From a virus (taxonomy: Duplodnaviria > Heunggongvirae > Uroviricota > Caudoviricetes): DNA of 34,738 nt. The stretch is taken from the IMG/VR virus record IMGVR_UViG_2585427766_000001; one strand, 5' to 3'. Under the pieces are notes generated by a model. The model had not been told where the DNA came from. It did not search any database and saw only the letters and a program-made list of their open reading frames with translations. Positions 1 through 12,812 of this stretch are shown piece by piece. Both the position numbers and the translations under genes were made by a program. Each line of letters begins with the position of its first letter. Position 1 is the first letter of the stretch.

Positions 1-42
1 TTAAGGGTTGTGGTATTACGCCTGATATGATTTAACGTGCCG

Positions 43-1155
43 ATGAATTACTCTCACGATAACTGGTCAGCAATTCTGGCCCATATTGGTAAGCCCGAAG
101 AACTGGATACTTCGGCACGTAATGCCGGGGCTCTAACCCGCCGCCGCGAAATTCGTGATGCTGCAACTCTGCTACGTCTGGGGCTGGCTTACGGCCCCGG
201 GGGGATGTCATTACGTGAAGTCACTGCATGGGCTCAGCTCCATGACGTTGCAACATTATCTGACGTGGCTCTCCTGAAGCGGCTGCGGAATGCCGCCGAC
301 TGGTTTGGCATACTTGCCGCACAAACACTTGCTGTACGCGCCGCAGTTACGGGTTGTACAAGCGGAAAGAGATTGCGTCTTGTCGATGGAACAGCAATCA
401 GTGCGCCCGGGGGCGGCAGCGCTGAATGGCGACTACATATGGGATATGATCCTCATACCTGTCAGTTCACTGATTTTGAGCTAACCGACAGCAGAGACGC
501 TGAACGGCTGGACCGATTTGCGCAAACGGCAGACGAGATACGCATTGCTGACCGGGGATTCGGTTCGCGTCCCGAATGTATCCGCTCACTTGCTTTTGGA
601 GAAGCTGATTATATCGTCCGGGTTCACTGGCGAGGATTGCGCTGGTTAACTGCAGAAGGAATGCGCTTTGACATGATGGGTTTTCTGCGCGGGCTGGATT
701 GCGGTAAGAACGGTGAAACCACTGTAATGATAGGCAATTCAGGTAATAAAAAAGCCGGAGCTCCCTTTCCGGCACGTCTCATTGCCGTATCACTTCCTCC
801 CGAAAAAGCATTAATCAGTAAAACCCGACTGCTCAGCGAGAATCGTCGAAAAGGACGAGTAGTTCAGGCGGAAACGCTGGAAGCAGCGGGCCATGTGCTA
901 TTGCTAACATCATTACCGGAAGATGAATATTCAGCAGAGCAAGTGGCTGATTGTTACCGTCTGCGATGGCAAATTGAACTGGCTTTTAAGCGGCTCAAAA
1001 GTTTGCTGCACCTGGATGCTTTGCGTGCAAAGGAACCTGAACTCGCGAAAGCGTGGATATTTGCTAATCTACTCGCCGCATTTTTAATTGACGACATAAT
1101 CCAGCCATCGCTGGATTTCCCCCCCAGAAGTGCCGGATCCGAAAAGAAGAACTAA
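43..1155 (+). CDS. insL: IS186 transposase (DDE, IS4 family)
   Basis: 370-aa product from ATG at 43 (the track ORF begins at an upstream GTG at 37). The sequence MNYSHDNWSAILAHIGKPEEL...YRLRWQIELAFKRLK matches my recollection of E. coli InsL; YRxRWxIE is the IS4-family C-terminal signature. Confidence 0.85.
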   Translation: MNYSHDNWSAILAHIGKPEELDTSARNAGALTRRREIRDAATLLRLGLAYGPGGMSLREVTAWAQLHDVATLSDVALLKRLRNAADWFGILAAQTLAVRAAVTGCTSGKRLRLVDGTAISAPGGGSAEWRLHMGYDPHTCQFTDFELTDSRDAERLDRFAQTADEIRIADRGFGSRPECIRSLAFGEADYIVRVHWRGLRWLTAEGMRFDMMGFLRGLDCGKNGETTVMIGNSGNKKAGAPFPARLIAVSLPPEKALISKTRLLSENRRKGRVVQAETLEAAGHVLLLTSLPEDEYSAEQVADCYRLRWQIELAFKRLKSLLHLDALRAKEPELAKAWIFANLLAAFLIDDIIQPSLDFPPRSAGSEKKN

Positions 1156-1303: not shown

Positions 1304-1326
1304 CAACCCTTAAGTTAGCGCTTATG
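1304..1326. repeat. IS186 right terminal inverted repeat
   Basis: CAACCCTTAAGTTAGCGCTTATG is the reverse complement of the repeat whose inner part opens the window. Indexing was checked against the stop codons of track ORFs 1130..1318 and 1315..1896. Confidence 0.8.
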
Positions 1327-1957
1327 GGTGTACCACCCCGCCAGGTGAGCAAAATCCCGCAGGGAGCTGTGTAGCGTGTTGCCGGACGGTCGACGATCTC
1401 CAGACATCTTCCTAAATGCTATTGAGGCGCTTTCGCCACCGCTGTGGTCGCTCGCCGCTGGCGTCGGCCACCCAATACGCTCTATCTCGGATATGCGGGG
1501 CACCGACGCCCGCAGCCGGAAACGGGACAAGCCCAAAGGCGTAGTCCACTGCTTCCACGTCAGTTTGTACAAGATCGAACCAGGCATTGACTCCCGCAAC
1601 CTGTTCGCCAAATACCAGCTTAGGGCGTCGCTCGCTGATGAGGTGGAATAGTGCTGGCCATAGGTGCCGCTCGTCATCAAACCCAGCGCCTTTACCAGCC
1701 GAGCTGAAAGGCTGGCACGGGCAACTTCCTGTCCAGACTGGTTTGTTATCCGGCCATCCGGCCAGACGCAGAGCATAAGACCAGACGCCGATCCCGGCGA
1801 AGAAATGGCACTGTGTGAATCCGCGCAAGTCGTCTGGTGCGACATCTTCGATACTCCTTTCATCAACTTCACCCGGGGCGATATGACCCGCAGCAATAAG
1901 GTTACGCAGCCATTGTGCTGCGTTAGGGTCTATTTCGTTGTAATAGGCTCCCCGCAC
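1327..1957 (-). pseudogene. Phage cytosine-5 DNA methyltransferase, C-terminally truncated by IS186
   Basis: Track ORF 1412..1957 carries C5-MTase motifs in canonical order: FFAGIGV (motif I-like), GSCPCQPFSSAGK (PCQ, motif IV), FGEQV (ENV-like, motif VI), HIRDRAYWV (motif VIII). The frame stops at 1412 and IS186 begins 85 nt further on, so the target-recognition domain and motifs IX-X are absent. Confidence 0.7.
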
Positions 1958-2729: not shown

Positions 2730-4793
2730 TTAATCCTTACGGTAGTGGTACGCCTCAAAACCGCCAGCGTTCAGTGGGATATCTGGCGCCCATTCGGGGT
2801 TAGTGGAGAGAAGCGCGGAAAGCGCTTTATCGTTGAAATCTTCTGTGTCAGGTGATTCGGTGATCACCTCGTCGTGTACCGTCAGCACAATGCTGTAACC
2901 GGCATCTTCGATAAGCGGCATGTTTCCGGCCAGAACGTCGCGGGCGGCCGCCTGGGTGACGTTCTCCACCAGCTTTCCGCCGTAGGTTTTGAGTCGTTGC
3001 CATTTACGCGAATAAGAGTTAACACCCATGTAGGTGATATTCCCTTGTTCGATAACCGGAGACGGGTAGCATACAGCGCGTCCGGATGGTAGCTGTATGC
3101 GCAGCCACGCGCCATCGCGGCGGATTTTAAGATAACCGCAATACAATGTTTTTTGCGGTGTGGCGATTGCTGTGCGGACGGTGCACTCCAGTTCGTACCA
3201 GAAATCACAGGTCGCGGGATGCGCCCGGCGCCAGAGACGTTTAAGTGAGTCGCAGGCGATAAATACCCGTTCAGAAAGCCCGTAGGTCGATTTACGTTTA
3301 ACCGATTCGTCGTACCAGCTTTTCGCCTCGCGGATAACATCGCGGGGAATGTTTGGCAGTGCGGCGTTCGCCAGCCCGTCGAGATCGAGACCGTAAACCA
3401 GAGCAAAAGTGATGAAAGCCGATACACCTCCTCCATAACCCAGACCGAGTTCCATGACTTTACCGATCTGACGCATGTGTTTATCAACATCATCTGGTGC
3501 AATATCGAAAGCTTTTGCATACGCCAGTTTATATAAGTCCGGACCCGTTCCGGCGTCGTACTCTCTGAATGCATTCAGTTTCCATTCTTCTCCCGCCAGC
3601 CATGCCAGCATACGGCCTTCAATGTTCGACAAGTCACTTACCACCAGCTTTTTGCCTGTTGGCGCGATAATGCAGCCACGTAACGCTGAACTGGTTAGTT
3701 CCATGATATTGTCAAACAGCAGGTCTGCACATCCGGCTTTCAGTGCTTCGATGCCTTCGTCTATTTGTTCCTGTTTTAGTGAAGGGCGGGGAAGGTTCTG
3801 GGGCTGGAATAGCCGTCCGGCCCAACGACCGGTACGTGACGCCCCGCAGAACTGTAGCGTACCGCGTAAGCGCCCGTCGTGGCTTACGCCTTTCATCAGT
3901 GCCTTGTATTTACTGGTGCTGGTAGTACTGGCCTGCAGGCGGATAGCCAGCAGTTCTTTCACGGCAGATGGTAAATCGGGGTCGGCAATACGACGTTCCA
4001 GAGTACTGCGTTGCATGTCTGGTAGCTCCACACCGTAGGATTCAACAATGTGCTTAATCAACGCGTCTCGTTGTGTGGCTGCCTGCACTTCGCCATCAGT
4101 CATTTCCTGTGTACGCTTTGCCAGGCGCTTTTGTTCCTGGTCTACCGCGTCGATCGCAGCGCGTGCGAGTTCCACGTCCATGCAGACGCCCCGGTCATTG
4201 ATCTGCTGATCACGATGCCAGAGCGCCAGTTCTGTCCCCTGATAATTCCACTTCGGCAGACGTTTATAGACTTCGCGCATTGCCTCGATATCCAGTCCGG
4301 CGTAAGCAACAAAGCGCCGCCATTCTTCCGGGTGGGTTTTGCTGGTGGCCCGGCGCAGTTTGCTGTTTTTCGGGCGTGGCTTACAGAACAGCTGGATCAG
4401 AGCTTTACCTTCTTTGTCCTTCGCTTTGTCTTGCGGGACGCCTAGTACTTCGCAGAGTTCCCCCAGAGCCCCCGGGAGACCGTGCGCCAGCGCCTGCACC
4501 ATCGTGTCGCGCCAACGTTCGACTGGCGGTGCCAGTCGCGGCATTGCATAACGCAGGACGGTGCGGTCGAAGTGAGAGTTATGAAAATAAAGCAGGGTTT
4601 CAGGGGCTGCGATTGCTTCGTATAAGCCGTGTGGAATACCACCACCGGCAGTGATATCCCATACGTTTACTGGCCCGTCGTTGATAGCCCATGCGAACAG
4701 CATCACTTCAACGCCTTCGGCATACGCATGGGTACCGTTCGTAATAGGGATTTCGCAATAGGTTTCCAGGTCGCCCCATAGTATATTGGACAT
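2730..4793 (-). CDS. Family A DNA polymerase with N-terminal 3'-5' exonuclease domain
   Basis: 687 aa. N-terminal WGDLETY (Exo I, D-x-E); polymerase motif B-like [16 protein letters not shown]; motif C LTVHDEV. Confidence 0.85.
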
Positions 4794-4839
4794 GTGTTTA
4801 CCTTGGTTTTTATTCTATTAACTGATTAAAAGATTAATT

Positions 4840-5469
4840 ATGCATATGATCCAATACTTGATTGACCATACAGAGCATCTGGAGAAAATAGCTGGATATA
4901 TTTTTTCATGTTTGATTGTTATGGGAGTCTGGATAAGAAAGATCATTTTTAATTATAAGTATAAAGAGCCTAAATATGTCAAGAAGTTAATTTTATATTT
5001 AGTTAAGTATGAACGTTATCTGGATAAGGAGGATAAGAGTGCCATAGAAAAAAGAATAAATGATAAAATTATTCGTGATGCGCTGAAATTGCAATCTTCT
5101 TATAACCGAAGTGATGTTATTTACATTTGCAATAGATTAGAAAAAAGACAGTATATAAATCAGGTGATTAAGCTTCAGAATTATATAGAGAAAGATAACG
5201 GAGTGTTTTTCATCAATGTTAATTTTTCAGGTTTTTTATTTATTATTAGTCGTCTGTTTTCCTTTCTGTGTTTTGTGCTGTTTATCCTTTTTTCTATTAT
5301 CTGCATTATTTCCATAGGGCAAAATGAAGGCCTTTTAAATTATCTTGTGTATATGGTTATGACAATAGTTTTAGAGACTGTTGGTTTTTGGATGTATGAT
5401 ACTTTCCCGTCTAAGAAGAAGATCTGTGAACTAAATAAAGAATTGAGGAAGATTAAGATTCCTGAGTGA
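4840..5469 (+). CDS. AT-rich hypothetical polytopic membrane protein (cargo gene)
   Basis: 209-aa ORF on the strand opposite to the surrounding operon. Hand count of three 60-nt lines gives about 27-32% G+C, against about 53% in a neighbouring polymerase line. One N-terminal hydrophobic helix (IAGYIFSCLIVMGVWI), a K/E/Y-rich segment, then C-terminal hydrophobic helices (FLFIISRLFSFLCFVLFILFSIICIISI, LVYMVMTIVLETVGFWMY). Confidence 0.6.
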   Translation: MHMIQYLIDHTEHLEKIAGYIFSCLIVMGVWIRKIIFNYKYKEPKYVKKLILYLVKYERYLDKEDKSAIEKRINDKIIRDALKLQSSYNRSDVIYICNRLEKRQYINQVIKLQNYIEKDNGVFFINVNFSGFLFIISRLFSFLCFVLFILFSIICIISIGQNEGLLNYLVYMVMTIVLETVGFWMYDTFPSKKKICELNKELRKIKIPE

Positions 5470-5487
5470 TTATACGCCTAATCAGCA

Positions 5488-5506
5488 GCCCGGTATTTAA
5501 CCGGGC
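5488..5506. other. Inverted repeat / hairpin between convergent genes
   Basis: GCCCGGT-ATTTAA-ACCGGGC palindrome between the 4840..5469 (+) and 5522..6070 (-) stops. No U-tract on either side, so not a canonical intrinsic terminator. Confidence 0.4.
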
Positions 5507-5521
5507 GTCTATGAAGTAGGG

Positions 5522-6070
5522 TTAAATCAGTGCTTCAGCATCAGCACCTTCGCTGATATCGTCGAAATCGTCAGCGCTTGCCACTCCGCCGCCAGCGAAT
5601 GCATCGCCGTCTCGCAGGAACTGGACTCCGCCGAGTGAGGCATTAATGCGTTTACCGAAATTATTGTCCTGTGCCCAGATATCGATAACGGCGTTTACAT
5701 AGCACCCTGCATAGGGACGTCCATCAGCCTGAATAAGTGGCGAACGATCGCGATCAAGAACAGCTGGGCGCGCTTTGTTAGCAGCATTCAGGAAGAAATT
5801 GCCGGGGAAGCCTTCATACTCTGCTTTTTCATCACCATCATGCAGGCACAGATTGAGTTTTTTCTCCAGTTGGTTATAAATGGGCTCCCACTTCTCTCCC
5901 CATTTTTCCTTCGCTACCTGCTTCATAGCTTTACGGATTTCTTCCAGTTGTGGGTGTTTGGGTGACATTAAAAATACTGCGGAGAAACGTGGATCGCCTT
6001 CGCCGTTTACAGTTTTAGCTTCAAACAGAGACGGGAAGGCCAGACGAACATTGTTCAGCTTCAGTTTCAT
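5522..6070 (-). CDS. DUF2815 family ssDNA-binding-like protein
   Basis: N-terminus MKLKLNNVRLAFPSLFEAK is typical of DUF2815; acidic SSB-like C-terminal tail DDFDDISEGADAEALI. Sits beside a DUF2800 gene, its usual partner. Confidence 0.7.
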   Translation of the reverse strand: MKLKLNNVRLAFPSLFEAKTVNGEGDPRFSAVFLMSPKHPQLEEIRKAMKQVAKEKWGEKWEPIYNQLEKKLNLCLHDGDEKAEYEGFPGNFFLNAANKARPAVLDRDRSPLIQADGRPYAGCYVNAVIDIWAQDNNFGKRINASLGGVQFLRDGDAFAGGGVASADDFDDISEGADAEALI

Positions 6071-6085
6071 GGGTATTTCCTTAAA

Positions 6086-7387
6086 TCAGATGAGGTCTGC
6101 GGTTAGCGTATCGTCGGATACGTCGTCGAAATCATTTACAGGGTTGATATTGAGTGCGGGGCGTGGGTCTGACTCGGGAACGATGGTGGGTTTACCATCA
6201 GCTCGTGTTATCAGTGCCTCGACTTTTGACCAACGGCGCGGACTGGCCTTTTTGATAAGTTTTTCGGCTTTTGTGGGGCTAATAAGTTTAAAGTCGAATA
6301 CTTCTTCAGTTTTGTACCTGAACTGGTCCTTCAGAAGTGCGCGAGCTGCCTCTTCATCACTCCAGGCCCGGTTACCTTGTTTTCCTGTTACCAGTTTAAA
6401 CCCCGGTACCGGATGTCCGGCATTGAGTTCATTGTGAACCCGGTCTCGTACTGCCTTTAGCCAGGATTCAATAAAGTCGGCCTGGCTATAGATCTCCGCA
6501 AGCTGCTCAATGGTTAACAGAGGTACACGTGCGCTGGCATTGGAGATTATTTCGCTGACAGGCTTTGTCAGATCTTCAAAATCGCTGGCCGCTGTTTGTA
6601 AATGCTGCATTTTCTGGGCAGTGCAAATAGCTTTTGCTTTACAGAAGCGGCACTGTTTTTCTCCAGGTATGAAGTTTTCCAGCGGTAGTGTCTCAATGCC
6701 TTCGCATTCAGCAATATTGAGAACAAGGATCGCACTGGTTGCGGCCTCCAGTGCCCGTTCACCGAAAGACTGAAGTTCCTGTACGGTTAACGACCATTCT
6801 GAAACGTGGTTGAGCCTTGGCTGGTGAATAAATAATCTTACAGTCTCAAAGTCATACAGCATGCTGAATTGTTCGAGCGCACCCAGAGCATACAGTTGTA
6901 GTTGCTCATTTTGTTCTGCATCAATGCGGACGCCTTTGCCATATTTCAGGTCGTGGATTTGTAATTCGCTACCAGCAATGATTATGCCGTCGGCAGTTCC
7001 GAAAGATTCTTCCACACCCGTTATATGTGAGAAATCAACACGTTGTTCAACCAATAGTTCATTATTCTGTGCAAGAGTCCAGACCGTATCAACATACCGG
7101 CCAACGGCTTCGACCATTTCATCATCCACCTGTGGGCCAGATGTATCATTAGGATTTTCGCGAAGGGGGTATGAGCCGAGAAACATAGAAACATTGCATC
7201 CGGCGTAGTGTTCCGGGTAGCTTTGCCTGTTTCGTAGAACTTTTTCAGCAAGCGCGTGCGCTGCAGTGCCCTCGATTGCAAAAGTTGTTTCTTTATCCGG
7301 TTGTGTGGCCTCCAGCGCCAGACTTCCTGGGCAGCGCATCCATCGATGCGCTGATGATGGAGAAAGTTGTGCATGAACGTCTGGCAT
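6086..7387 (-). CDS. DUF2800 family PD-(D/E)XK nuclease (Cas4/RecB-like)
   Basis: N-terminal [15 protein letters not shown] signature; C-terminal Cys cluster [10 protein letters not shown]. Confidence 0.75.
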
Positions 7388-7389
7388 GA

Positions 7390-8292
7390 TTAACCCTCCA
7401 GTGCTTTTTCAGCCAGGGTGATTACTTCAGCGAGATTTTCATCCGTTACTTCACCAAGTTTCCTGGCTCCCTGTTTTTCCAGAATTGCAATAGCTTCTGC
7501 CCGGTAACCCCCTTTTGCTAACTGGAGGATCAACCCTTCAGCTTGTTTGCGTAGTGCCGCGAAATCAATTGTATGGTCATCTTTGGCGTCATGATTCTGG
7601 CTGGAATTTGCTGCGTCTCTGCGTGCAAATTCTTCTTGCAGCTGAAGGTACTCAACACGGTTGATCTCGATATGGCCTTTTTTCAGCATCTCGTTCAACT
7701 TGCGTAAGGTGTGGAGTTCACTGGCTGCTGTGCCGGATACATTTTTGGCGTAAAACGGCCCCGTGCGTTCTCCATCTTTGTTACTGGCCTTTTTCGGCTT
7801 AACTTCATCACGCCCATCCGCAGGTGCATCAAGTAGCTGCTCGGCAAAAACACGTCGCTCGCCGATGGTTGGCAGGTCGTCCCAGAACTTAAGGATGTTA
7901 CGGGACAGGTCCAGGAGAGCAGGTTTAAGCAGCGCCCTGGCTCGTTTGACGCCCTGCAATGCGCTGTCGAGAGCATCAATCTGAACTACTCGTTTATCGC
8001 CTTCAGCATCACGGTAGGCAACAGCACGTTGCAGCATGTCTTCTGTGATAGGGGTGGCTACCGGGTAGAAACCAGCCAGTGCGATAACGTCGCTGAACTC
8101 CAGATCATCCAGTGTCATTGCCGCTGACATATTTTCAGTTTCAGTTGCTGTATCCCGACATTCCTGCACTCGTGAAATCGTGTCAGGATGCATAACAATG
8201 CCTGATGCCATTGTGCGGATAAGACGTTCAAGCAGCGCATTATGTTGTGCCAGAAGTTGATTATTAAGTTCGAGACTGGTTTCTAAACTCAT
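7390..8292 (-). CDS. Hypothetical early-left protein
   Basis: 300-aa ORF coupled to its neighbours; acidic and helical; no motif I can name. Confidence 0.5.
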
Positions 8293-8471
8293 ACTGTGGT
8301 CCTCGCTACAAGGAGAATGAAAGTGATGATCAGACCGAGCGCAGTGGCAACGGCCAGACCGGTCATCAAATCGAAGTTTTTACGGCGATAACGGAGAACA
8401 TCGCGCCCCGTCAGTCGATGGAGGTATTCAGGTTTCATCGGTTGTATTCCTTTTTTCATATCGGGGAGCAC
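8289..8471 (-). CDS. Small hypothetical membrane protein, first gene of the leftward operon
   Basis: 60 aa: basic N-terminal half, then one hydrophobic helix LMTGLAVATALGLIITFILLVA. Stop overlaps the downstream start. Confidence 0.5.
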   Translation of the reverse strand: MLPDMKKGIQPMKPEYLHRLTGRDVLRYRRKNFDLMTGLAVATALGLIITFILLVARTTV

Positions 8472-8496
8472 GCTGTTGCGAGTGCGCTTTCAGACA

Positions 8497-8523
8497 TAAA
8501 AAAGCCCGTCACTTGAGGCGGGC
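8497..8523 (-). terminator. Intrinsic-terminator-like hairpin about 25 nt upstream of the leftward operon start
   Basis: Read on the minus strand: GCCCGCC-TCAAGT-GACGGGC followed by TTTTTT. Confidence 0.5.
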
Positions 8524-8662
8524 AAAGGCTACACACAGCAATTACTTGGATGTCAGCGAATGCCTGCTTTTAACCACGTCAGACGAGATGGCTCTCTCTG
8601 TACCCCTACAGCGAGAATTCGGCTAATATCTCTTTACCCCTATAGTTTTAGAGAGAATTAAG

Positions 8663-9187
8663 ATGTCTGAAGAAAAAGGACTTGTACGGCGTATAACTGA
8701 GGCGGCCACTAGTGCTGGTGGTGCTTTGAAAGGTGCTGTTGATTTAGCAAAAGAAGTTAATGCGTTGCAGGTGGATTACAATGTTAAAAGTAAAACTATC
8801 GATCTACTTGATAAACTAATTGATGCGCGTACTGGACAATTCGCACTAACGGAGCTTTTGAACGAAGCTAAACAGCGCATTGTTGAACTCGAATCCCTTC
8901 TGGAAAAGAAACAGGATTGGGATAGTGAGAAAATGAACTATGAAATGTACCACCCGATTACCAATACGGTGGTCTATGTACTGAAGCCTACTGACGATCC
9001 TGAGTTCAAGCCTCATTATCTTTGTACTACATGCTATGAGTCGGGTATGAAGTCTATACTTCAATACCATACTTCTAATGCCGCTTATAAAATTCTCAAG
9101 TGTCATAAATGCTCCGCTGAATATAAATTTCCCCGAAATATAGAAGTCAGTGGCAAAACTCCTGCACCGTTACAACCTGCCAGATGA
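8663..9187 (+). CDS. Hypothetical coiled-coil protein with C-terminal CxxC...CxxC zinc-ribbon (immunity-region cargo)
   Basis: 174 aa, convergent with cI. N-terminal heptad-like helices (LQVDYNVKSKTIDLLDKLIDA, AKQRIVELESLLEKKQDW); C-terminal LCTTCYESG...LKCHKCSAEY. Hand count of three lines gives about 37-47% G+C. Confidence 0.55.
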   Translation: MSEEKGLVRRITEAATSAGGALKGAVDLAKEVNALQVDYNVKSKTIDLLDKLIDARTGQFALTELLNEAKQRIVELESLLEKKQDWDSEKMNYEMYHPITNTVVYVLKPTDDPEFKPHYLCTTCYESGMKSILQYHTSNAAYKILKCHKCSAEYKFPRNIEVSGKTPAPLQPAR

Positions 9188-9280
9188 TTAGCAGTTCTCT
9201 TTGGTGGTGGTGTAGTGGTAGATGCTGAACTTCGGATTGACTCAATGGACTGATCTTCACCCCACCCCAAAAGGAACTAA

Positions 9281-9305
9281 GCGCCCCATCGTCGGGGCGT
9301 TTCAA
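9281..9305 (+). terminator. Intrinsic terminator downstream of 8663..9187
   Basis: GCGCCCC-ATCGTC-GGGGCG followed by TTT; about 95 nt past the stop. Confidence 0.5.
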
Positions 9306-9339
9306 CTTGCGTGACTTATCAGTTTGTCGCGGTGTTGTC

Positions 9340-9430
9340 CTCTACGCTTACCGTACGCATACGGACTCGGCGCTTACCTCGATCCCATCGGGTGCTATTT
9401 CGTTTTGCCAGGAGTACTGCGGCTTACCTG
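9340..9430. repeat. Three direct repeats of (G/A)CGCTTACC plus a small palindrome
   Basis: ACGCTTACCG (~9345), GCGCTTACCT (~9371), GGCTTACCT (~9421); palindrome CCGTACGCATACGG at ~9350-9363. The unit resembles lambda boxA (CGCTCTTA) but on the plus strand. Confidence 0.4.
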
Positions 9431-9477
9431 TCACGCGGTTCAGTTTGTTAAAGAGCCAGTATTAAAAAACGCATTAA

Positions 9478-9521
9478 TTATGCGATATCGTATTTATATG
9501 CGTTATGGGATTTTGTGTTAA
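9478..9521 (-). promoter_or_regulatory. Candidate leftward early promoter (PL-like) overlapped by operator-like repeats
   Basis: On the minus strand: TTAACA (-35, plus 9516-9521), 17-nt spacer, TATAAA (-10, plus 9493-9498). Two copies of TATGCG(A/T)TAT(C/G)G overlap it (TTATGCGATATCG ~9478; ATATGCGTTATGG ~9496); a third (TTATGCGTTATCG) lies in the cI-cro intergenic region. Confidence 0.45.
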
Positions 9522-9540
9522 TACTAAAATGAATTATTTT

Positions 9541-9575
9541 GCAAATAAGAAAACCGCCCTTGTGGAGAGCGGTTT
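9541..9575 (-). terminator. Intrinsic terminator of the repressor gene
   Basis: On the minus strand: AAACCGC-(11-nt loop)-GCGGTTT followed by TCTTATTTGC; about 30 nt past the cI stop. Confidence 0.55.
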
Positions 9576-9605
9576 GATCAGAAGTAAGTTATCAGACTGT
9601 AAAGG

Positions 9606-10280
9606 TTAGTACATACGTAGCGCGGATTTGGCGATCCCCGCCACGTAATGGATTTTTTCAATGTTTTCGCGTGGTACTCTGACTGGTGGATGATCTTCAT
9701 TTACAGACATTAGATGGAACAGGCCATCGCGTTCGAACAAGAAGGTTTTAACCATGACCTCACCTTCCCGGGTAACCACAAGTACTTCATCACCAGGAGT
9801 GTAGTCGTGGTTGGGTTCGACGATTACGAACTCCCCCTCTTTGATTCTAGGCATCATTGAATCACCAACACATTTCAGGGCGTATGCATCTTCATCCTTT
9901 GTCGGCCAGTATATGAAACCATCACTGCTACCTACTGAATATTGGGTGTCGCTCCAAAGTCCTCCAACGCCTAGCTGAGTGTTTCCCAAAACAGGTACTT
10001 TATTAAACCTAAGAGAAATATACGTTTTTATACCTGTCGCGTCCTCTTTCTCCATTTCTTGAAGGCTCCTTTCTGCCAAGTCTATTGGTGACACGTGGAA
10101 GTAGTCGGCGATCTGCTTTAACGTTGCGTATTTCGGATCTTTCACCTCTCCTGATACCAGCCTGTGTAGCGTTGGTTGGTTCAGCTGTAACCGACGTGCC
10201 AGCTCAGTTATCGAGCTTATCTTGGCTTTGTCCATCAGGTACTTGATGTTTTGAGAAAGGATATCGGTAGTATCAATCAT
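9606..10280 (-). CDS. cI: CI-like repressor (HTH_XRE + S24/LexA-type autopeptidase)
   Basis: N-terminal helix-turn-helix ISSITELARRLQLNQPTLHRLVSG; C-terminal S24 domain with catalytic Ser in CVGDSMMP and a downstream Lys (EVMVKTF). Divergent from a Cro-like gene. Confidence 0.85.
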   Translation of the reverse strand: MIDTTDILSQNIKYLMDKAKISSITELARRLQLNQPTLHRLVSGEVKDPKYATLKQIADYFHVSPIDLAERSLQEMEKEDATGIKTYISLRFNKVPVLGNTQLGVGGLWSDTQYSVGSSDGFIYWPTKDEDAYALKCVGDSMMPRIKEGEFVIVEPNHDYTPGDEVLVVTREGEVMVKTFLFERDGLFHLMSVNEDHPPVRVPRENIEKIHYVAGIAKSALRMY

Positions 10281-10421
10281 TTGGATTCATCCATGTTGTA
10301 TACAGGGACGGTGATTATGCGTTATCGGATATTTTAATCTAGGATGACATAGAATTGCTGTATTGCTGAGTAATCCGTTTTCGTATAAATTTGCGCTATA
10401 GACGAAAGTGGAAACTTAAAT
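10281..10421. promoter_or_regulatory. Divergent cI/cro promoter-operator region
   Basis: Rightward TTGCTG (10363-10368), 15-16 nt spacer, TATAAAT (10384-10390) ahead of cro. Leftward TATACA about 18 nt from the cI ATG (short leader). Operator-like TTATGCGTTATCGG at 10314-10327; tandem ATTGCTG x2 at 10354-10368. Confidence 0.55.
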
Positions 10422-10622
10422 ATGTCCGGACTAACACCACAAGAGATGGTCAAAAGCTTGATTGATTCAGGGTATACCCAAAACCAAATTGCCGAAATTG
10501 CAGGCGTGAAGCAGTCTTCTATTAGTCGGCTTCTTACCGGGGTTCATTCTGACCCTCGCTTTTCTACAGTACGTGCGATAGAAAAACTTTTTCAGGAAGT
10601 GACAGCTAGACAAAAGGTGTAA
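10422..10622 (+). CDS. cro: Cro-like HTH regulator
   Basis: 66 aa with HTH YTQNQIAEIAGVKQSSISRLL; divergent from cI and first gene of the rightward operon. Confidence 0.75.
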   Translation: MSGLTPQEMVKSLIDSGYTQNQIAEIAGVKQSSISRLLTGVHSDPRFSTVRAIEKLFQEVTARQKV

Positions 10623-10625
10623 CCC

Positions 10626-12812
10626 ATGTCCGATAGCAAACCATGGGGAGCTACGCCTGATGAGTGGTTTCATTTCGACCTGGTATTGGGGCGGACTGCT
10701 CATCTTCTCCCAGTTGTATGTAACCCCAGTGCGACCATATCCCCTGATAGTAAATTGAAAGCGTTGGGTAAGACGCCGAGTCGCTATAACCGGGACCGCC
10801 AGGTCACAGGTATTGCTCAATGGACCGGGCATGTTGTTACTGAGCATGATTTTGCCCGCTGGTCGAATGAACCGGATTATGGCATCTGCGTGCGTACAGG
10901 CCATGGCTGGCTGGCGCTGGACTGCGATAGCGAAGATGAAGACATTCAGGCAGATATTCGCAAAACACTTGTGCAACTTCTGGGTGAGTCGCCGCCGCGA
11001 CGCTGGCGAGCAAACAGTAATAAGTGTCTGTATCTGCTGGCCGTTGATGGTGATTTCCGTAAGCGTATCCATCGCCTGGCGGGGGATATGGGCATTATCG
11101 AGTTGCTGGCGAACGGGCAGCAGTTCGTTGCCTGTGGTACGCACAGCAGCGGCGCGCGTATTGAATGGGACGGTGGTTTGCCGGATGAACCTCCGGCTAT
11201 TACAGGTGAGCAGCTTGAAACGCTGTGGCAGCGCCTGGCTGAACAACTCCCTGTGTCGGTAACCACCGAAGCGGGCAACACGAAGATGCGCGACCGTTCA
11301 GCATTCACGCCCGGCGCGACGGATGATACAGCTGAATATCTTGATGCCAATGGCTGGACGCTGCTGGATGGCGCAAACGGTGAACGATATATCCGCTGTC
11401 CGTTTGAAGACGGCCACAGTAGCGGAGGCGATCCAACAAGCACAGTTTATTTTCCTGCGGGAACCGCAGGCTTTGAGCAGGGGCATTTTAAATGCCTGCA
11501 TGCCAGTTGCGCGCATCGTGATGACGGAGATTTCCTGAATGCCATCGGGATCCGCAACGACGATTTCGAAGATCTGACCAGCATCGAAGTGGCGGAACCT
11601 TTACCGCTGCCTGCTTTCGAGCGTGATAAATGGGGGCGTATCGAGGCAACCATCAGCAATGCAGCCAAAGCAGTAGTACGCTCTGATTTTGTGGACATCG
11701 ATATTCGCTTTGACCAGTTCCGCGACGAAATCATGTTTGCCCCGGCAGGATCCGGACAATGGCGGGCATTCACCGATGCGGATTATGCGCGCCTGCGCAT
11801 CACGATGGAAAAGCGGGGATTTAAACCTGTTGGCCGTGAACTTATTCGCGATGTGGTGTTACTTGCAGCCGATGAACAACCATTCGATTCAGCGATCACC
11901 TGGCTGAACGGACTGGAGTGGGATGGCGTGCCGCGCATCGAATGTTTCTACCATACGCACTTCGGTACCGCCGACACGCCTTATACCCGTGCGGTGTCTA
12001 TGTACATGTGGACCGCGTTGGCGGGGCGAGTACTGGAGCCAGGCATCAAAGCGGATATGGTGCCGATCCTCGTTGGTCCGCAGGGCTGCGGTAAGTCTTC
12101 CGGAGTGGAGGCACTGAGCCCTGATCCTGCGTTTTTTACTGAAATCTCTTTTGCCGAAAAAGACGATGATCTCGCTCGAAAAATGCGTGGTCGGCTGGTG
12201 GCAGAGATTGGTGAACTGCGCGGGCTTAATACCAAAGAGCTGGAGTCAATCAAAGCGTTTGTGACGCGTACTCACGAAAACTGGATCCCGAAATACCGGG
12301 AGTTCGCCACCCAGTTTCCTCGTCGCCTGGTGTTCGTTGGTACCACTAATGAGGACGAATTCCTTGCGGACAAGACTGGTAACCGTCGCTGGCTCCCCGT
12401 GGAAGTGTCGAAAGTCGACGTGAAAGCGATAAAAAGAGATCTCCTTTTACTTTGGGCTGAGGCTCGTGAGGTGTTTCAGCGTCTGGGGGGTATCCAGTTC
12501 CGTGAGGCTGAACAACTGGCAGCGAGTGTCCATGAACAGTACACCATCAAGGATGCTTGGCTTGAAACGGTAGAGAAATGGCTCGACACGCCCGACCTGA
12601 TGACTAATGAACTTCCGCGAAATTGCGAATTTTTACGCGCAAGTGATGTTTTGCGTGATGCGATTGGGCTAAATCCTGACCGCATCGGAAAACGCGAAGA
12701 AATGCGAATTAGTAATGTTTTGCAAAATTGCGGGTATAAGCGTGCCCAAAGGCGAATTGGGGGGAAAAAATGCAAGGTTTGGGAACCGCTGGAACCACGC
12801 GGAACCACCTAG
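10626..12812 (+). CDS. Replication primase/helicase fusion (prim-pol N-terminus, zinc finger, VirE/D5-like P-loop NTPase)
   Basis: 728 aa. Catalytic acidic cluster GWLALDCDSEDED; Cys/His zinc-binding CPFEDGHSSGG...HFKCLHASCAH; Walker A ILVGPQGCGKSS; Walker B-like RRLVFVGTTNEDE. Confidence 0.8.
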   Translation: MSDSKPWGATPDEWFHFDLVLGRTAHLLPVVCNPSATISPDSKLKALGKTPSRYNRDRQVTGIAQWTGHVVTEHDFARWSNEPDYGICVRTGHGWLALDCDSEDEDIQADIRKTLVQLLGESPPRRWRANSNKCLYLLAVDGDFRKRIHRLAGDMGIIELLANGQQFVACGTHSSGARIEWDGGLPDEPPAITGEQLETLWQRLAEQLPVSVTTEAGNTKMRDRSAFTPGATDDTAEYLDANGWTLLDGANGERYIRCPFEDGHSSGGDPTSTVYFPAGTAGFEQGHFKCLHASCAHRDDGDFLNAIGIRNDDFEDLTSIEVAEPLPLPAFERDKWGRIEATISNAAKAVVRSDFVDIDIRFDQFRDEIMFAPAGSGQWRAFTDADYARLRITMEKRGFKPVGRELIRDVVLLAADEQPFDSAITWLNGLEWDGVPRIECFYHTHFGTADTPYTRAVSMYMWTALAGRVLEPGIKADMVPILVGPQGCGKSSGVEALSPDPAFFTEISFAEKDDDLARKMRGRLVAEIGELRGLNTKELESIKAFVTRTHENWIPKYREFATQFPRRLVFVGTTNEDEFLADKTGNRRWLPVEVSKVDVKAIKRDLLLLWAEAREVFQRLGGIQFREAEQLAASVHEQYTIKDAWLETVEKWLDTPDLMTNELPRNCEFLRASDVLRDAIGLNPDRIGKREEMRISNVLQNCGYKRAQRRIGGKKCKVWEPLEPRGTT

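Follow-up and report, generated by a model that had tools for sequence, protein, structure and literature searches.

What does a single, strongly AT-rich membrane-protein gene do on the opposite strand of a phage replication operon? The question is raised by the IMG/VR virus record IMGVR_UViG_2585427766_000001, a stretch of 34,738 nucleotides (the whole of it is called the window here) that comes from a prophage of E. coli and has a G+C content of 51% (0.507). An earlier note on this DNA had described an antisense open reading frame (ORF) of 209 amino acids (aa) between the DNA polymerase start (4793) and the DUF2815 stop (5522), had counted 27-32% G+C in three lines of sequence, and had seen in it a lone, compositionally foreign membrane-protein gene set against the replication operon. 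We found the same coordinates and strands, the whole gene has a G+C of 0.295 compared with 0.507 for the window, and the description as a whole is borne out. The analysis below shows that the gene is cargo of a site at which accessory genes are swapped. It may be an exchangeable moron of a temperate E. coli myovirus, encoding an inner-membrane protein that would protect its carrier from foreign DNA, mainly that of other phages; we hold this reading with slightly less than even confidence. The locus is made up as follows.

2730..4793, minus strand: 687-aa family-A DNA polymerase (PF00476; pol), left flank of the slot; cassette homology ends at its start codon.
4787..4816, plus strand: the only promoter-like match (TGGACA at 4787-4792, an 18-nucleotide spacer, TATTCT at 4811-4816; 9/12 match to consensus), which straddles the pol start codon.
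4794..4839, plus strand: cassette-specific leader of 46 nucleotides, 22% G+C, between the pol ATG and the ORF.
4840..5469, plus strand: 209-aa gene with an ATG start, encoding a predicted inner-membrane protein with three transmembrane (TM) helices; accessory or 'moron' gene.
5488..5506, no strand assigned: stable hairpin GCCCGGT-ATTTA-ACCGGGC in the 52-nucleotide gap between the convergent stops (z -4.6 on both strands).
5522..6070, minus strand: Enc34-type single-stranded DNA-binding protein (SSB; PF10991, formerly DUF2815), right flank of the slot; cassette homology ends at its stop codon.
6086..7387, minus strand: DUF2800/PD-(D/E)XK nuclease, the neighbour beyond the SSB gene.

The ORF at 4840..5469 is a genuine gene and not a random AT-rich frame, a possibility that the earlier note had left standing and that is excluded by ORF-length statistics and by homologues. 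For DNA with the base composition found in 4794..5521, 209 consecutive codons would be free of stops with a probability of 8.6e-9; the open run observed is 215 codons, and the longest among 2000 shuffles was 146 codons. This chance probability of about 1e-8, the existence of full-length homologues of the same architecture, and constraint on the ratio of nonsynonymous to synonymous polymorphism (pN/pS) together establish that the gene is real. The fall in G+C is sharp and limited to the cassette, with values of 0.28-0.29 in 400-nucleotide intervals at 4801-5400 and of 0.47-0.57 on each side. The encoded protein is identical to RefSeq WP_000551021.1, annotated as 'hypothetical protein', and the 728 bases between the flanking genes match at 100% the chromosomes of O103:H2 12009, enterotoxigenic E. 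coli (ETEC) H10407 and others. From 1326 to 25518, the extent of the O103:H2 locus compared, the window is 99.9% identical to the O103:H2 prophage, a copy integrated next to yfhL.

The nature of the site became apparent when the flanks, taken from window positions 4100..6200, were searched in 5426 complete E. coli genomes. They are present in 159 genomes, 67 of which hold the 209-aa gene, always in the same slot. In the other 92, the pol start codon (4793/4794) is the exact point where homology breaks off; it resumes at the DUF2815 stop (breakpoint 5521/5522), or at 5489 in variants that share the hairpin. Accessory genes are exchanged in the gap between pol and DUF2815, and the 209-aa gene has the marks of a moron or exchangeable cassette: it is dispensable (67/159), the backbones around it are collinear, its boundaries fall at gene ends, and its G+C is 0.295 against 0.51. 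The hairpin belongs to the phage backbone and is no part of the cassette, as variants of the slot that carry BRO-N and Ant cassettes share it. A 199-aa antisense protein occupies the same place, in the same orientation, in 20 further genomes. It comes in two sub-types that are 80% identical in DNA, has a G+C of 0.32-0.35, and, like the window protein, has a charged middle between a first TM helix and a pair of further ones. Pairwise BLASTP relates it only marginally to the window protein (E 0.005-0.018); alignment of the two subfamilies by hhalign, with a probability of 98.4% (E 9e-15, 191 columns, 17% identity), shows that the 199-aa protein is a remote homologue of the 209-aa protein. Adding the 67 genomes with the 209-aa gene to the 20 with its 199-aa homologue, 87 of the 159 backbones (55%) carry a single family in the slot, in three highly divergent forms. 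This corresponds to about 1.6% of complete E. coli genomes (87/5426), including enterohaemorrhagic E. coli (EHEC) O103:H2, ETEC H10407 and the commensal IAI1. The remaining cargo consists of BRO-N or Ant antirepressor-like genes, or of Nmad5 (a nucleotide-modification domain) with either an antisense 89-aa protein with two TM helices or a 229-aa soluble protein. Slots of sister prophages with alternative cargo lie at the following positions of our numbered loci.

L003 1051..2026
L004 1056..2380
L005 1064..1966
L007 1067..1828
L008 6721..8196

In some sister prophages, HNH and NUMOD4 homing-endonuclease-like genes are inserted beside DUF2815 or DUF2800.

How far does the family extend outside this slot? 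An exhaustive HMMER search of 1.84 billion representatives returned ten relatives with 22-43% identity, seven of them full-length (209-261 aa, 25-43% identity), aligning end to end and sharing the same architecture. A word-indexed search returned only near-identical sequences of E. coli or Enterobacteriaceae, and a scan of a genome collection with a narrower alignment returned only two loci. The exact 209-aa protein is found on at least 1000 contigs, and among 50,697 deposited phage genomes the gene is present in only 3, which are all sister phages of the window prophage. The protein matches PHROG 10579 (E 2e-109, residues 28-209), which is uninformative on its role because no function is annotated for that PHROG. 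The G+C is 0.28-0.35 at eight of nine family loci and 0.40 at the ninth (L012), always under that of the flanks (0.41-0.54). The family delineated by sequence is small, uncharacterised and carried by mobile elements of Enterobacterales.

The earlier note had proposed to look for the gene in unrelated prophages, and relatives were indeed found in P2-like, lambdoid and RecT-module phages as well as at non-phage sites. Six P2-like loci (in Rahnella, in an Enterobacterales metagenome-assembled genome and in four IMG/VR contigs) hold members in the gap between gpS and gpV, the position of the nonessential P2 orf30. The Q antiterminator gene of a lambdoid prophage of Erwiniaceae has a member immediately upstream of it, and a dGTPase defence gene (PADLOC E 5e-144) is two genes away from that member; in another phage early operon a member is antisense between a PAPS-reductase-like gene and RecT. 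A member of 43% identity (P0004) is in a conjugative element, about 750 base pairs (bp) from a TraG_N operon; others are at the edge of a Xenorhabdus prophage remnant and alone between an SLT gene and thrS; another is on an integrase island of Serratia, with Septu-like PtuA/PtuB genes and a type I restriction-modification (R-M) specificity gene as its immediate neighbours. Klebsiella aerogenes carries the 199-aa type in the same prophage slot. In Enterobacter cloacae, pol has shrunk to 110 bp and DUF2815 to about 24 bp around an intact 199-aa gene. Three of these loci are detailed here.

L024 4805..5404 and 6805..11592: Serratia sp. Ag1 island, with a 44%-identical member and with PtuA/PtuB nested beside the type I R-M specificity gene.
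L027 4874..5640: Enterobacter cloacae remnant, with the 199-aa family gene and a YjhX toxin gene nearby.
L028 4960..5584: Pluralibacter gergoviae lone copy, the 199-aa family gene lying between eutC and a LysR-family regulator gene.

The Serratia island also encodes a DUF6338 membrane protein (199 aa, E 3e-33). All relatives are single genes, and no gene recurs as a neighbour of family members; 363-aa neighbours at L009 and L024, considered as a conserved partner, prove unrelated.

These locations bear on whether the protein serves the phage or element itself. The earlier note had allowed that homologues might turn out to be replication accessory proteins, and such a role is excluded, because members lie in tail operons, in a conjugative element, in a defence island and at lone chromosomal sites, besides the Q-gene site. 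A broader version, in which the protein would anchor replication at the membrane, time lysis or exclude entry by conjugation, could be drawn from the position inside a replication module both here and in the RecT-module phage, from the family's presence in the slot of 55% of the E. coli prophages with this backbone, and from the member close to the TraG_N operon. We consider it decidedly unlikely: the other 45% of the same backbone do without the family and carry unrelated cargo, the gene is antisense to the operon, members are found in tail operons and at non-phage chromosomal sites, the prophage already encodes a holin, endolysin and spanin set of its own, and the gene was found in none of 72,556 plasmids.

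The intact lone copies in Enterobacter cloacae and Pluralibacter, all that can still be recognised there of this type of prophage, show that hosts keep the gene once the phage is gone. Retention of lone chromosomal copies after prophage decay would also suit a membrane protein of lysogenic conversion that is unrelated to phage defence, such as an immunity protein against a pore-forming bacteriocin or a contact-dependent toxin, or a factor that benefits the host under stress or in colonisation. Immunity proteins against pore formers are likewise AT-rich, small and polytopic, and family members share no neighbouring toxin gene or phage-specific partner gene. Nevertheless, the protein matched no colicin or contact-dependent inhibition (CDI) immunity family in Pfam or NCBIfam, and by the tally of contexts toxin genes were seen nearby in none (the Enterobacter cloacae remnant does have the YjhX toxin gene listed above). 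Recurrence at phage accessory slots and the divergent alleles in one slot fit an arms race between phages better, and we regard this form of lysogenic conversion as unlikely.

What kind of protein is it? The earlier note had seen one N-terminal helix, a K/E/Y-rich cytoplasmic segment and a C-terminal hydrophobic cluster, and had suggested a topology prediction; the layout agrees with hydropathy and with an AlphaFold2 (AF2) model, and the prediction gives three TM helices. Hydropathy shows a hydrophobic stretch at about 14-37, a K/E/Y-rich middle and a hydrophobic cluster at 122-183. The AF2 model, built from a family alignment of 21 sequences (predicted local distance difference test, pLDDT, 79.8; predicted template modelling score, pTM, 0.55), has helices at 11-37, 132-160 and 165-188, a short C-terminal helix at 192-202, and a helical middle with a beta hairpin at 116-125. 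The anatomy given here is that on which hydropathy, the AF2 model and charge counts agree.

Residues 1-16: acidic N-terminal peptide, predicted periplasmic.
Codons 17-37 (4888..4950, plus strand): TM1, from hydropathy, AF2 and charge.
Codons 38-127 (4951..5220, plus strand): K/R-rich cytoplasmic domain (20 K/R, 12 D/E) with four helices and the beta hairpin.
Codons 128-186 (5221..5397, plus strand): TM2-TM3 hairpin, with TM2 at about 128-151, a periplasmic loop of about 11 residues and TM3 at about 163-186.
Codons 187-209 (5398..5466, plus strand): basic cytoplasmic tail with the family signature FP-x4-I-x3-N-x-E-L-x-K.

The predicted topology is N-out/C-in, the N-terminus being periplasmic and the middle domain and tail cytoplasmic; this placement follows from the positive-inside rule and from a charge pattern that is the same in 21/21 members. 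The PHROG 10579 alignment begins at Met28 of the 209-aa protein. Distant homologues align from residues 1-6 and retain the N-terminal helix, and hence the long form, which includes the first membrane helix, is the true one. Across the family N199 and L202 are invariant and L54, R90, I125, F151, P190, I195 and K204 nearly so, and the cytoplasmic domain 38-127 holds most of the conserved residues (L54, D65, N74, D75, R79, R90, Y95, I125). Two charged residues within membrane helices, R138 in TM2 and E179 in TM3, are invariant in the 209-aa subfamily and not conserved in the 199-aa subfamily. A winged-helix fold for the middle domain was considered on the basis of the order of secondary structures and of a PadR match at rank 25; it gave no profile match and is kept as a lead only.

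The earlier note had recognised no known family and had proposed profile and structure searches, and these gave no consistent match. Scans of Pfam, NCBIfam and PADLOC with the window protein, 21 relatives and the isolated central domain returned nothing consistent; the window protein had no match at E<=1 among the 5027 models of PADLOC-DB v2; PDB sequences, searched with the single protein and with the family profile, gave nothing below E 0.6; and the modelled protein matched no fold in PDB or BFVD. Weak matches to DUF2207_C, RbsU and crAss_PVA are low-complexity or TM noise. Among the 21 relatives there are isolated weak PADLOC matches, to PDC-S47 (E 4e-4, one member) and to REase_II (E 0.005, three members). 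PDC-S47 is a PADLOC single-gene candidate that has no description; positions 30-109 of its profile are matched by residues 18-94 of relative P0010, that is TM1 and the start of the cytoplasmic domain, and as this concerns 1/21 members and about one third of the profile we treat it as a lead only.

The closest analogue in both anatomy and population pattern is SieA of phage P22, a superinfection exclusion protein of 164 aa in the inner membrane, for which three transmembrane domains are predicted; its cytoplasmic C-terminal motif is conserved, and it blocks the transfer of DNA across the inner membrane (PMC10883804). Both are single prophage genes, AT-rich (sieA 0.337 against 0.471 for P22) and antisense to the neighbouring operon, and the SieA sequence reads as one N-terminal helix, a charged segment and two C-terminal helices. 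Both proteins carry a short conserved cytoplasmic C-terminal motif, ...YPGEANGFNKEFIK in SieA and ...FPSKKKICELNKELRK in the window protein. The window family has three predicted TM helices, a conserved basic C-terminal motif and a predicted membrane localisation, but the motif itself differs: FxRYPxEAxxFNK in SieA, FPx4Ix3NxELxK in the family, with a spacing from P to N that differs by two residues. The cytoplasmic middle is about 50 residues long in SieA and about 90 in the window family; SieA is found only in P22-like podoviruses, whereas the window family occurs in myoviruses, lambdoid phages, a conjugative element and chromosomal islets; and the function of SieA is proven, whereas that of the family is suggested by context. 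Homology with SieA was rejected, as hhalign gave the family alignments a probability of 0.2-0.5% against a nine-member SieA alignment and of 0.3% against the single P22 sequence. The Pfam copy used was one without the SieA family PF26849, since P22 SieA itself matched nothing in it. Homology with SieB was rejected as well: 0/21 members match PF14163 at E<=0.1 (P22 SieB itself E 4e-29) and hhalign gives 0.15%. With hhalign probabilities below 1%, the family is SieA-like in design and a member of neither the SieA nor the SieB family. The SieB protein of P22 and lambda (PF14163) nevertheless offers a parallel, being a membrane-associated protein of about 190 aa that acts by abortive-type exclusion and whose gene is antisense inside the early-left operon with a promoter of its own, the latter a sieB feature; its hydrophobic helices are N-terminal, which is a difference. 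A further parallel is positional, as the members of 38% identity that sit exactly in the gpS-gpV gap occupy, like the gene between pol and DUF2815, an accessory position between conserved genes. The P2 hotspots that Rousset and colleagues reportedly showed in 2022 to hold defence systems are loci other than the orf30 slot.

From context and SieA-like anatomy, the abortive-infection or exclusion gene suggested by the earlier note is the best available reading, and an exclusion or defence role of any kind seems to us about evenly balanced between true and false. Support comes from the variability of the slot, the divergence of alleles, mobility, the two contexts with defence genes nearby, the persistence of the gene where the prophage has decayed, and the SieA-like design. 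We infer expression in the lysogen, an anti-phage effect and the step that would be blocked. Within this reading we tentatively favour a SieA-like block of entry that the cell survives, a doubtful proposal in its details. The protein would sit in the inner membrane of the lysogen, where its cytoplasmic face and membrane hairpin would stop the DNA-delivery apparatus of a superinfecting phage from completing transfer across the inner membrane, and the infected cell would survive. The antisense position, possibly with its own promoter, could permit expression while the repressed replication operon is silent. In another scheme the protein is an abortive-infection effector, whose cytoplasmic domain would sense a phage cue (DNA or protein at the membrane) and whose TM2-TM3 hairpin would oligomerise into a pore, leading to depolarisation and to death or arrest before release. 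This is suggested by the location of most of the conserved residues in the cytoplasm, by the conservation of R138 and E179 within TM2 and TM3 of the 209-aa subfamily, by the single gene adjoining Septu and R-M genes in Serratia and lying near the dGTPase gene in the Erwiniaceae prophage, and by an antisense position in an early operon like that of P22 sieB, an Abi-type gene. On the other hand, no SLATT, RexB, SieB or other known membrane effector was matched (an RTasSLATT match at E 0.085 in 1/21 members is noise) and the buried E179 is missing from the 199-aa subfamily, so that we rate this effector as rather unlikely. It is possible, at somewhat less than even weight, that the protein is the founding member of a family, not described before, of anti-phage proteins that act as single-gene systems at the inner membrane of Enterobacterales; alleles of 17% identity are swapped at one slot, the family moves among myoviruses, lambdoid phages, conjugative elements and defence islands, and hosts retain it once the prophage has decayed. 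[quoted passage not shown]

Several observations weigh against the protective role and the SieA-like entry block. The periplasmic portion of the protein is very small, a less likely arrangement for a partner of the injection apparatus, and a lock-and-key block of one injection machine is disfavoured because the family spans phages with differing tails and non-phage elements. Defence neighbours are found in only 2 of about 12 contexts. Searches of the literature with RefSeq accessions, phage names and PDC-S47 found nothing on this protein. Promoter-like matches such as that at 4787..4816 are no commoner at the locus than in shuffled sequence, and the window copy is without a clear Shine-Dalgarno sequence; several relatives have good ones. 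A gene of 29% G+C may be silenced by H-NS in E. coli. Finally, disrupted alleles exist: that of O55:H7 DEC5B has a nonsense mutation at codon 63, and cluster P0002 is frameshifted. As for other signals around the gene, the leader supplies the pol ribosome-binding site on the opposite strand (AAGG ahead of the ATG), there is no canonical terminator 3' of the gene, as the 5488..5506 hairpin lacks a U tract, and no Rfam RNA family was found across the whole window.

Nonsense and frameshift alleles, together with the weak translation signals of the window copy, also raise the question of whether the gene is a decaying or silent passenger that has no present function in E. coli. Among six E. coli alleles, pN/pS is 0.24-0.42 in most pairs, with small counts, and about 1 in three near-identical pairs (1 synonymous versus 4-5 nonsynonymous changes); in the flanking pol and SSB genes it is 0.0-0.26 with one outlier. 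Being below 1 yet above the values of the flanking genes, these ratios suggest, within the limits of small counts, that selection on the gene is purifying but relaxed. The excess over the flanks would fit a passenger. However, the exact protein is present on the 1000 or more contigs mentioned above, 66 of the 67 complete-genome copies are annotated as intact (the one exception, which was inspected, carries a nonsense codon), architecture and motif are kept down to 17% identity, and several homologues have good Shine-Dalgarno sequences. A passenger is in our opinion very improbable.

If the protein does exclude phages, it would be a new compact single-gene system of 0.6 kb, and its presence would bear on the host range relevant to phage therapy and on competition between prophages. 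A parallel with SieA in the absence of detectable homology would show that a layout of inner-membrane guard is recurrent, with a TM helix, a cytoplasmic segment, a TM hairpin and a basic tail. If it has no anti-phage effect, it is a well-delimited orphan membrane moron. The gap between pol and the Enc34-type SSB gene is in itself a new accessory-gene slot, shared by Nmad5, BRO-N, Ant and small membrane proteins, that can be mined for defence and counter-defence cargo.

Other features of the window and a second variable site of the same operon are listed below.

37..1155, plus strand: IS4-family transposase (NCBIfam NF033592, E 1e-38), at the left end of the window.
1315..1957, minus strand: truncated DNA cytosine methyltransferase region, of which the N-terminal 181 aa are left at 1412..1957.
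8663..9187, plus strand: 174-aa ORF of about 41% G+C (PHROG 1244, unknown function; no Pfam or PADLOC family).
L008 3805..4566 and L023 3105..3866: TIR-domain gene, in a second variable slot of the same operon that is empty in the window.

The prophage methyltransferase gene is considered truncated since homology with O103:H2 12009 starts only at 1326, with the IS4 transposase to the left. In sister phages, including the isolated phage vB_EcoM-689R2, the TIR-domain protein gene lies between the ANR regulator gene and pol. The 174-aa ORF is located between the cI-like repressor gene (9606..10280, minus strand) and the head of the leftward replication operon; the N-terminal half of its product is a coiled coil and the C-terminal part shows a CxxC...CxxC pattern, and the ORF is a candidate for a second accessory gene expressed in the lysogen.

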